Source of the DNA: Escherichia coli 042
GTDB lineage: Bacteria; Pseudomonadota; Gammaproteobacteria; Enterobacterales; Enterobacteriaceae
Direction: 5' to 3' (one strand)
Length of the DNA stretch: 64,000 nt
Assembly (NCBI RefSeq): GCF_000027125.1
Contig: NC_017626.1
Made by a program: the position numbers and the translations under genes. The first letter of the stretch is position 1. Every line of letters starts with the position of its first letter. Below, piece by piece: positions 58,114-58,796 of the stretch. Below the pieces are notes generated by a model. It had not been told where the DNA came from, searched no databases, and saw nothing but the letters and a program-made list of their open reading frames with translations.

Positions 58114-58118
58114 AGCGA

Positions 58119-58134
58119 TTCTCCATGAGGAAAA
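58119..58134 (-). promoter_or_regulatory. FourU-type RNA-thermometer-like hairpin sequestering the chuA Shine-Dalgarno
   Basis: mRNA-sense sequence UUUUCC-UCAU-GGAGAA immediately 5' of the chuA AUG; UUUUCC can pair with GGAGAA. A thermometer is reported for shuA/chuA in the literature. Confidence 0.55.
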
Positions 58135-58402
58135 TAAAAAATGCTGGCTGCCTGGGTTAATACCGGGGTGGCTGGCGAAAAATAAATTTATTTAAAATTC
58201 AGAGCGATAATATTCGCCGGGTGAGTTTACAGGCGTTTATATCCCATGAAATTGCCTGGTATCTCGGCAAATACGCAAAAGCACGCCCTCTTTGTCAGGC
58301 AAAACGATATGCCCCATCAGGAGTGAAGAGCGCTGTGCGTTACCCCTTGTAAATGATATGGCTTTGTTATCCATATGGCCGTATTTTGTTAAATGCAAAC
58401 GT

Positions 58403-58421
58403 GATAATGAGAATTATTATC
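58403..58421. promoter_or_regulatory. Fur box (GATAATGAGAATTATTATC)
   Basis: 17 of 19 positions match the GATAATGATAATCATTATC consensus; in the chuA-chuT divergent region. Confidence 0.7.
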
Positions 58422-58751
58422 GATCAATTTTTTATGATCAAGCTTTTTTTTAACCGCCATTAACACAATAAACAGAGGGTTATGAAACTTATCCTGCGCC
58501 CTGGAAACCACTTTATTTTTATGGTTATTCCCCCATGACCTCATCACTAAACTTTGTCGTTAACAGTGATAATTTTCTCTTCGCTTTGCTCTGCAAGCCT
58601 CGATATCTCTGGGTTCTCAGCTTTTTCCCGCGCTGAAATTTAGTCGGTAACAAGAACGTTAGCTGACGAAGCATCTTGATAAAAATCAAAAATAAATACG
58701 CTTGTAACGCCTTGCGTATTGAATCGACGGTTGTATTTCATATATAACTCA

Positions 58752-58770
58752 AATGATAATCATGATCATT
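58752..58770. promoter_or_regulatory. Fur box-like site (AATGATAATCATGATCATT) upstream of chuT
   Basis: Contains GATAATCAT core; lies just 5' of the proposed chuT ATG (58797). Confidence 0.6.
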
Positions 58771-58796
58771 CTCAATTTGATAAGAGTTCTCATATT

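Follow-up and report, generated by a model that had tools for sequence, protein, structure and literature searches.

The chuA-chuT divergent control region of Escherichia coli 042: known iron and temperature control elements and a possible hemP origin of the long chuA leader

Introduction

How are the two divergent haem-uptake genes chuA and chuT of Escherichia coli 042 controlled from the DNA that separates them, and why does the receptor gene have a 291-nt leader where its orthologues hold a small gene? We examined a stretch of 64,000 nucleotides (the window) in which the chuA-chuT intergenic region of the E. coli haem-uptake island occupies positions 58114-58796 (683 bp), between the following two genes:

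56131-58113, minus strand: chuA coding sequence, TonB-dependent haem receptor, ATG at 58113-58111 (from the list of open reading frames and the RefSeq annotation of a 99.9%-identical genome)
58797-59711, plus strand: chuT/shuT coding sequence, periplasmic haem-binding protein, beginning with ATG (the RefSeq start in five annotated E. coli genomes)

The intergenic region shares 99.9% identity with annotated E. coli chromosomes, in which the genes are called chuA and shuT. We conclude, with a probability of roughly 93%, that this region controls the divergent chuA/chuT (shuA/shuT) pair in the haem-uptake island of E. coli and Shigella and that it works as published. Its Fur sites, its long leader and its FourU thermometer are already known, being the subject of one Rfam family and three dedicated papers; what we observe on the position of the leader in the hemP slot and on an HPRE-like repeat is a modest new lead. 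Identity with characterised elements, non-randomness, invariance among alleles and the mapping of coordinates were computed here, whereas Fur binding, temperature response, start sites and the effects of small RNAs and Rho come from the literature.

Results

The locus is found in 2,236 of 5,426 complete E. coli genomes, and its intergenic alleles are deeply diverged: 1,006 genomes match the window at 95% identity or more, and another 1,229, ST131 and APEC O1 among them, match it at 80-90%. The intergenic region of O157:H7 Sakai is 96.3% identical to that of the window. An alignment of the alleles indicates that divergence is patchy, the interior of the chuA leader being only about 75% identical, whereas both promoters, both Fur boxes, the last ~90 nt of the chuA leader and the chuT leader are invariant or nearly so. 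The divergent promoters are separated by a spacer of about 280 bp:

58442-58718, no strand assigned: spacer between the promoters, conserved among alleles except at 58480-58560

Rfam and Pfam searches of this spacer returned zero matches. The locus-tag series of Sakai jumps over ECs_4381 between chuA and chuT.

The window was searched for the 19-bp Fur consensus GATAATGATAATCATTATC with up to three mismatches, using 100 dinucleotide shuffles as control. We find only two sites in the 64 kb, against a shuffle mean of 0.02, and each lies at one of the divergent promoters:

58403-58421, no strand assigned: Fur box 1, chuA operator, GATAATGAGAATTATTATC, two mismatches to the consensus; covers the -10 region and +1
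58413-58441, minus strand: chuA promoter from the consensus scan, -35 TTGATC (58441-58436), 17-nt spacer, -10 AATAAT (58418-58413)
58719-58748, plus strand: likely chuT promoter, read from the sequence, -35 TTGAAT (58719-58724), 18-nt spacer, -10 TATAAC (58743-58748)
58755-58773, no strand assigned: Fur box 2, chuT operator, GATAATCATGATCATTCTC, three mismatches; +1 to +19 of the chuT transcript

Fur box 1 sits exactly where the original prediction, made from the letters of the DNA, had placed it, and the distance of about 290 bp to chuA claimed there is borne out: the box spans -17 to +2 of chuA, 290-308 nt upstream of the ATG (58113). It is unchanged in six E. coli alleles. A second Fur site next to chuT had also been proposed. 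That operator is real, but the best register is 58755-58773, three nucleotides to the right of the proposed 58752-58770, which reads the same operator in an overlapping hexamer register. The site is functional in the published system, as the shuT Fur site, at +1 to +19 and with three mismatches, binds Fur in EMSA and is needed for iron control (PMC5458455). Fur box 2 sits downstream of the chuT promoter rather than on it, a point missed in the original prediction. Two papers, PMC3660397 and PMC9002310, state that Fur represses chuA/shuA. The window thus carries the same two 19-bp boxes as the Fur-repressed chuA/shuA and shuT promoters, down to the same three mismatches as shuT; for these promoters, the data on start sites and Fur binding come from S. 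dysenteriae and O157:H7 Sakai, strains different from that of the window.

The position of the chuA promoter predicted by the scan fits the published +1. Promoter-like matches in the region are not more frequent than in shuffled sequence. The -35 and -10 hexamers of chuT are a likely assignment read from the sequence; the 62-nt insert of the published pT-lacZ fusion implies a 36-nt shuT promoter, which fits 58719-58748 (PMC5458455). Two other candidates were discarded, a plus-strand match of the promoter scan at 58769-58798, which falls 3' of the chuT +1 as mapped, and a possible RfaH ops element, GGCGGTTA (58458-58451), which agrees with only 6 of the 8 bases of the ops core and lies upstream of the -35.

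The +1 of shuT was mapped by 5'-RACE to 42 nt before the ATG (PMC5458455), which corresponds to window position 58755. A list of open reading frames had started chuT at a TTG (58719), and the original prediction argued against that start, rightly so: the TTG lies upstream of the transcription start and therefore cannot be the start codon, and RefSeq uses the ATG at 58797 in all genomes checked. The same TTG opens the likely -35 hexamer of chuT, TTGAAT. The transcript begins with a short leader:

58755-58796, plus strand: chuT 5' UTR of 42 nt, shuT-type RNA thermometer, in which A14-U18 (58768-58772) pair with A29-U33 (58783-58787)

In the MFE fold this pairing covers the AGAG ribosome-binding site, reproducing the published U15/U16-RBS pairing. 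The 42-nt shuT leader has been described as an RNA thermometer in which U15/U16 pair with the RBS, and it was these bases that were mutated (Wei et al. 2017, PMC5458455). The window has the same 42-nt leader with the same U15/U16 opposite AGAG as the shuT thermometer (Wei 2017), an element that is not of the FourU type. The predicted energy of the fold is like that of shuffles (58755-58799; -5.8 kcal/mol at 37 °C, z +0.2). That chuT has an RNA thermometer of its own had been overlooked in the original prediction.

On the other side, chuA is transcribed with a long leader, as had been proposed from the distance between Fur box 1 and the gene. In Sakai dRNA-seq places the chuA +1 at 291 nt before the ATG (PMC9002310), and RT-PCR gave a length of 278-342 nt for the shuA leader (PMC3660397). 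The alignment of locus L002 carries the Sakai +1 to window position 58404, inside Fur box 1, without an indel between +1 and ATG. Two features of this leader are needed here:

58114-58404, minus strand: chuA 5' UTR of 291 nt, from the Sakai +1 at 4,391,862 (PMC9002310) mapped by alignment
58275-58303, minus strand: conserved island UUUGCCUGACAAAGAGGGCGUGCUUUUGC, a short GC stem followed by a U-tract, ending at the published Term-seq 3' end at +129 (58276; PMC9002310)

The island is identical in D/E and B2 alleles within a region of ~75% identity, is largely kept in E. albertii, and is a terminator-like match in our scan. The published 3' ends of the leader lie at +129, +271 and +297; that at +271 (window 58134) results from Rho-dependent termination, an Hfq peak spans +160 to +200 (58245-58205), and a strongly repressive/rut region spans +177 to +217 (58228-58188) (PMC9002310). 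According to the same study, CyaR activates chuA by pairing ~15 nt upstream of the SD, with partly compensatory mutations as support, RyhB and Esr41 repress at the RBS, and an additional repressive element, left unidentified there, is overcome by CyaR (PMC9002310). Control of the leader by Rho, CyaR, RyhB and Esr41 had been overlooked in the original prediction.

The mapped +1 lies 262 nt upstream of the hairpin that precedes the chuA start codon, so the hairpin is inside the transcribed 5' UTR. It belongs to a known family:

58111-58142, minus strand: FourU thermometer, Rfam RF02597 shuA_thermo (cmscan, 60.1 bits; gathering score 58)
58135-58118, minus strand: hairpin arms AUUUUCC (58135-58129) and GGAGAAU (58124-58118) with loop UCAU (58128-58125); SD GGAG at 58124-58121

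The Rfam match (E = 2.1e-8) covers model positions 1-32 of 32 and is identical at 32/32 positions to the consensus of this family, titled 'shuA/chuA 5' UTR thermoregulator'. The other Rfam matches, Hammerhead_HH9 (E = 0.14), mir-743 and a group II intron fragment, score well under their thresholds and were set aside as noise. A hairpin of 6 bp sequestering the SD had been predicted before the chuA AUG; it is present, with 7 bp, one more than claimed, and in the MFE structure U-21 to U-18 face the A-G-A-A of GGAGAA. Its energy, -6.1 kcal/mol at 37 °C (z -2.8), is equalled by 1.4% of shuffles. The proposed FourU architecture is supported by the Rfam identity and by published U-tract mutants of shuA and chuA, in which stabilising and destabilising single-base changes shift temperature-dependent translation (PMC3660397). 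We find no difference from the shuA/chuA thermometer of Kouse et al. 2013 (PMC3660397): the 32 nt up to and including the AUG are the same, and the hairpin likewise closes a leader of ~290 nt at its 3' end. In silico melting leaves the SD-pairing probability flat from 25 to 42 °C. The temperature response is thus not reproduced computationally, because the predicted folds hardly melt over this range.

Just upstream of the hairpin the leader carries a direct repeat, which is partly overlapped by the best predicted site for CyaR:

58143-58176, minus strand: bipartite direct repeat GCCAGCC-ACCCCGG-N-CCCAGG-CAGCCAGC, at -63 to -30 of chuA
58176-58170 and 58150-58143, minus strand: the repeat units GCCAGCC and CAGCCAGC, with 19 nt between them
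58137-58165, minus strand: best predicted CyaR pairing site, core GGCAGCCAGCAUUUUU (58152-58137), from windowed RNAduplex with K-12 CyaR (-20.1 kcal/mol)

The repeat occurs once in the 64 kb (expected 0.00). The CyaR duplex at 58165-58137 is the best in the whole leader, overlaps the distal half of the repeat and coincides with the site supported by the partly compensatory mutations of PMC9002310. A whole-molecule RNAduplex of CyaR against the leader was discarded, as its 150-nt 'duplex' was no better than shuffles.

A question remains, what occupies this position in other bacteria? With ChuA as query and one genome per species we collected 80 loci from about 20 enterobacterial genera. Nearly all loci and genera have a Fur box, most commonly GATAATGATTATCATTGTT, at 300-320 nt before the receptor ATG. 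In every one of the 74 non-Escherichia loci the interval of ~300 nt from box to receptor codes for HemP, a small haem-binding activator of 54-68 aa that ends in ...LLGxEGRVIIEHDGQHYLLRQTxAGKLILTK and belongs to Pfam hemP PF10636 (62-64 bits for the Citrobacter and Kluyvera ORFs). In contrast, a HemP ORF is missing there from all four Escherichia loci, of which three belong to the E. coli group and one to E. albertii; it is likewise absent from the window and from B2 alleles, and blastn detected no hemP-like DNA in the 5,426 complete E. coli genomes. That the Shigella locus is without hemP has been noted before (PMC6158557). Since the interval bears HemP elsewhere and none in Escherichia, the Escherichia leader occupies the hemP position:

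58188-58374, minus strand: leader interior of 187 nt in the hemP slot, running from the relic ATGGATAAC as far as TAAATAA; a fast-evolving, non-coding stretch in Escherichia

At 187 nt the slot is nearly as long as hemP, which has 189 nt. The relic ATGGATAAC stands at -261, where hemP starts (the MDN codons of Citrobacter are at about -253), and the 3' end of the slot reads TCTGA[ATTT]TAAATAA, against TCTGA[C]TAAATAA in hemP. A spacer of ~75 nt from hemP, or from the slot, to the receptor ATG is conserved from Escherichia to Leminorella and holds GCCAGCC-ACCCAGG ... CCCAGG-CAGCCAGC. Of 87 loci, 68 have a single copy of the repeat at this place, shortly before the receptor ATG.

Compared with the hemPRSTUV/hmuP'RSTUV operons of Yersinia and other Enterobacterales, the Escherichia locus has the same Fur promoter ~300 nt upstream, the same GCCAGCC...CAGCCAGC repeat and the same U-rich anti-SD tract. 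It differs in that those operons encode HemP (54-68 aa) in the interval, which is non-coding in Escherichia, and in that their transport genes form one operon, whereas they are divergent in Escherichia. Of 54 distinct orthologue leaders, 52 carry, ahead of the SD, a U/C-rich tract that can base-pair with GGAG. An anti-SD tract in other genera does not imply thermoregulation, because hemR1 of Y. enterocolitica has a FourU-like hairpin, yet is not thermoregulated (PMC6158557).

The repeat resembles the HmuP-responsive element (HPRE), the comparison being with the two C. violaceum sequences displayed in PMC9131926, of which the chuR example is CCCGCAAGCCAGCCGACAGCCAGCCAGCG. HPRE is described for the leaders of alpha- and beta-proteobacterial haem-receptor genes (Amarelle et al. 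2019, as cited in PMC9131926 and PMC9241770). As presented in these citing papers, it is likewise a direct repeat of the GCCAGCC type in a receptor leader, tens of nucleotides before the start codon and linked to hemP/hmuP. The enterobacterial repeats differ from those examples in standing ~19 nt apart, in the second repeat CCCAGG, and in Escherichia in the missing partner gene: linkage of the repeat-bearing locus to hemP is absent in the window and present in 74/74 non-Escherichia loci.

Discussion

Put together with the published experiments, these elements would give a layered control. In iron-replete cells Fe-Fur would sit on two operators, over the chuA -10/start site and over +1 to +19 of chuT. 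At low iron chuA would be transcribed with its 291-nt leader, and translation would be gated by the FourU hairpin, with UUUU on the SD at ~25 °C and the hairpin open at 37 °C. The chuA leader would be further controlled by Rho termination near +271, by CyaR activation just upstream of the hairpin and by RyhB/Esr41 repression at the RBS, and chuT would have a 42-nt leader with its own, non-FourU thermometer. Joint control of the receptor by iron and temperature, the outcome that the original prediction had drawn from its motifs, agrees with published experiments on the same sequence elements (PMC3660397, PMC9002310).

Could these motifs be chance matches in AT-rich intergenic DNA, without a regulatory role? 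The region is indeed AT-rich, the energy of the chuT hairpin is unremarkable and promoter-like matches are as frequent in shuffles; but the two Fur sites against 0.02 expected, the Rfam match above its curated threshold and the strict conservation of just these elements in alleles with ~25% divergence elsewhere speak against it, and published mutagenesis and EMSA refute it (PMC3660397, PMC5458455, PMC9002310), so that we consider chance virtually excluded. A more serious alternative concerns the structure that occludes the RBS of chuA. A longer helix, CAGCA-UUUUUU (58148-58136) with GGAGAA-U-CGCU(AUG), which uses the conserved GCGCUUUUC adjoining the repeat and is mutually exclusive with the local hairpin, might be the main one and be opened by CyaR on its 5' strand. 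It is the MFE structure of the -40 to +15 segment (55 nt) at 20-37 °C, the local hairpin being favoured at 42 °C, and its 5' strand falls partly within the predicted CyaR site. In 55 distinct orthologue leaders the corresponding helix, AGCGCUUUUC/GGAGAGUUGC, is 88% paired (slid controls 48-60%), and one of its pairs shows C-G to U-A compensation, in 6 cells (1/500 shuffles). However, the local hairpin fits the leaders of the different genera equally well, with 85.5% of cells paired (slid controls 39-73%); the sequence comparison lends both structures modest support. Anti-SD pairing in orthologue leaders is 0.86 against 0.76 when the upstream sequence is shuffled, so a U/C-rich composition by itself gives high pairing; because shuffled upstream sequence pairs almost equally and pairing is flat with temperature, folding cannot discriminate thermometers here. 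Published mutations at -19 and -17, which lie only within the local hairpin, alter thermoregulation as that hairpin predicts and count against the longer helix (PMC3660397). That CyaR acts independently of the thermometer (PMC9002310) is neutral toward it. We regard the longer helix as unlikely to be the main occluding structure, and the local FourU hairpin as the thermometer.

A further alternative is that the leader encodes a functional small protein. An upstream ORF at 58374-58237 (minus strand, 45 codons) begins with MDN, its start coincides with the hemP start position, and it is open in most E. coli alleles at 45-53 codons, so it might be a divergent HemP or a leader peptide that controls access of Rho. 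Five Escherichia lineages differ pairwise by ~25% in the leader interior, with substitutions spread evenly over the codon positions (0.218/0.209/0.216). The length of the ORF varies from 34 to 69 codons, its start is GTG in locus L062 and is lost (ATT) in locus L007, and it has neither a Pfam hemP match nor a recognisable SD before its ATG. With no constraint on codon positions and an ORF that is not conserved, we reject a functional upstream ORF as very improbable.

Whether the long leader is instead the left-over position of hemP, we judge to be an even bet. It would mean that hemP was lost in Escherichia, that the stretch became a Rho-sensitive leader and that the HPRE-like repeat is now bound by CyaR. 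The order Fur box-HemP-receptor in 74 of 74 non-Escherichia loci against none of four in Escherichia argues for it, as do the slot length, the ATGGATAAC start and the TCTGA/TAAATAA end, all matching hemP. So does a hemP DNA profile, whose single nhmmer match in 128 kb falls at the syntenic start (58377-58330), at E = 5.4 there and at E = 0.035-0.08 when the leaders alone are searched. Also in favour are the repeat motif, kept in all genera and overlapped by the best CyaR duplex, and the report of a repressive element relieved by CyaR (PMC9002310). Against it, the leader interior has no statistically supported residual similarity to hemP. Pfam hemP gave no match to the ORFs of the window and B2 alleles at E <= 10, a custom hemP protein profile with filters off gave ~0 bits on the six-frame window and seven Escherichia leaders, Smith-Waterman scores of hemP against the leader equalled those of shuffles, and the consensus of five Escherichia lineages had no hemP similarity. 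Likenesses picked out by eye (SSLL.G, KEGVLL, QKY..LR) were rejected, all homology tests except that one weak match at the syntenic start being at noise. Because there is no supported hemP similarity, replacement by unrelated DNA of similar length is possible too, and hemP may have been lost either by decay in place or by replacement. The HPRE link relies on two published sequences, the element is said in a citing paper to be absent from gammaproteobacteria (PMC9241770), and the absence of hemP from the Shigella locus is not new (PMC6158557). In the literature searched we found no prior statement that the long chuA leader fills or derives from the hemP slot.

Under a hemP origin the ancestral order would have been Fur box, hemP, a spacer with the repeat motif and the anti-SD tract, and receptor. 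From the comparison of loci we suggest, at odds a little short of even, that the leader stands in the hemP position, that its HPRE-like repeat became a CyaR pairing site after the loss of hemP and that the stretch, no longer translated, became a substrate for Rho. A hemP origin complements the published control scheme: if true, it would supply an origin for the long leader and a candidate for the unexplained repressive element overcome by CyaR (Sy & Tree 2022, PMC9002310).

The chuA-chuT region is a textbook case of layered control of virulence genes, by iron through Fur and by temperature through RNA thermometers, with small RNAs and Rho in addition. Its re-identification is useful for annotation and is not a discovery; the comparative by-product is worth more, as it bears on why chuA has a 291-nt leader where its orthologues hold a small gene. 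It would also extend an HPRE-like repeat to the Enterobacterales, and it predicts that HemP-type regulators and CyaR may act on the same RNA segment.

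The interior of the chuA leader

The 291-nt chuA leader of Escherichia coli 042 carries, in its interior, a segment that stands where other genera have a gene. In 74 of 74 non-Escherichia orthologous loci (L008-L086) HemP (PF10636) is encoded exactly at the site of this segment, and the boundaries and length of the two agree. No leftover sequence similarity to hemP was detectable within the interval:

58188-58374, - strand: chuA leader interior, at the hemP position of orthologous loci L008-L086

We find that this interior diverges within Escherichia itself. In comparisons of five lineages, E. 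albertii included (strain 042 and the leaders L003, L041, L062 and L051), all pairs are about 75% identical over the interior with almost no indels; the 82 nt flanking it are 93-100% identical and the encoded ChuA proteins 95-98%. Divergence between E. coli alleles equals their divergence from E. albertii.

Conserved elements of the leader

Two short elements of the leader are conserved:

58275-58303, - strand: 29-nt island, a short GC stem followed by a U-tract, the same in D/E and B2 alleles
58143-58176, - strand: bipartite repeat GCCAGCC...CCCAGG...CCCAGG...CAGCCAGC, identically placed in 68 of 87 loci

In a stretch where identity is otherwise about 75%, the D/E and B2 alleles of E. coli share the island without a difference, and its 3' limit coincides with the 3' end published at +129 from Term-seq. 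The island may act as a weak attenuator or pause site, or form the 3' terminus of an RNA derived from the leader. The bipartite repeat lies directly upstream of the anti-SD tract and overlaps the site of CyaR, the small RNA that activates chuA. As judged by sequence, it appears similar to the HmuP-responsive element, of which two C. violaceum examples were compared; that element is reported absent from gammaproteobacteria, according to a passage in a citing paper (PMC9241770).

Leader length also varies. In Escherichia sp. MOD1-EC7003 (L007) an insertion of about 126 nt, lying between roughly -110 and -235 relative to the chuA ATG, contains CCCGATGAGCTTACATAAGTAAGTGATTCGGGTGAACG, which resembles an ERIC/IRU repeat. 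Several Buttiauxella loci have longer leaders, of 430-515 nt.

chuT and the divergent arrangement

58755-58796, + strand: 42-nt chuT leader with an RNA thermometer of the shuT type, not FourU
58442-58718: spacer of about 280 bp separating the divergent chuA and chuT promoters

The chuT thermometer has already been described (PMC5458455); the DNA of its leader contains Fur box 2. The annotated ChuT N-terminus (58797-58943, + strand) is unusually long ahead of the predicted cleavage region, with two hydrophobic stretches (MPRIITRPFLFSPLTLCISAVASAAKTAVKRKKLFTAVLALSWAFSVTA|AE). Starting at an in-frame GTG at 58857, which has no obvious SD, would yield a conventional signal peptide.

The spacer is well conserved apart from 58480-58560. 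ECs_4381 is missing from the run of Sakai locus tags across the spacer, a gap suggesting that a hypothetical gene was removed from that annotation.

In comparisons of the 1100 nt preceding the receptor gene, the second Fur box, that of the chuT type, and the divergent layout were seen in Escherichia loci only. The other genera (L008-L086) show one Fur box, which precedes hemP; this fits a single operon of the hemPRSTUV type.
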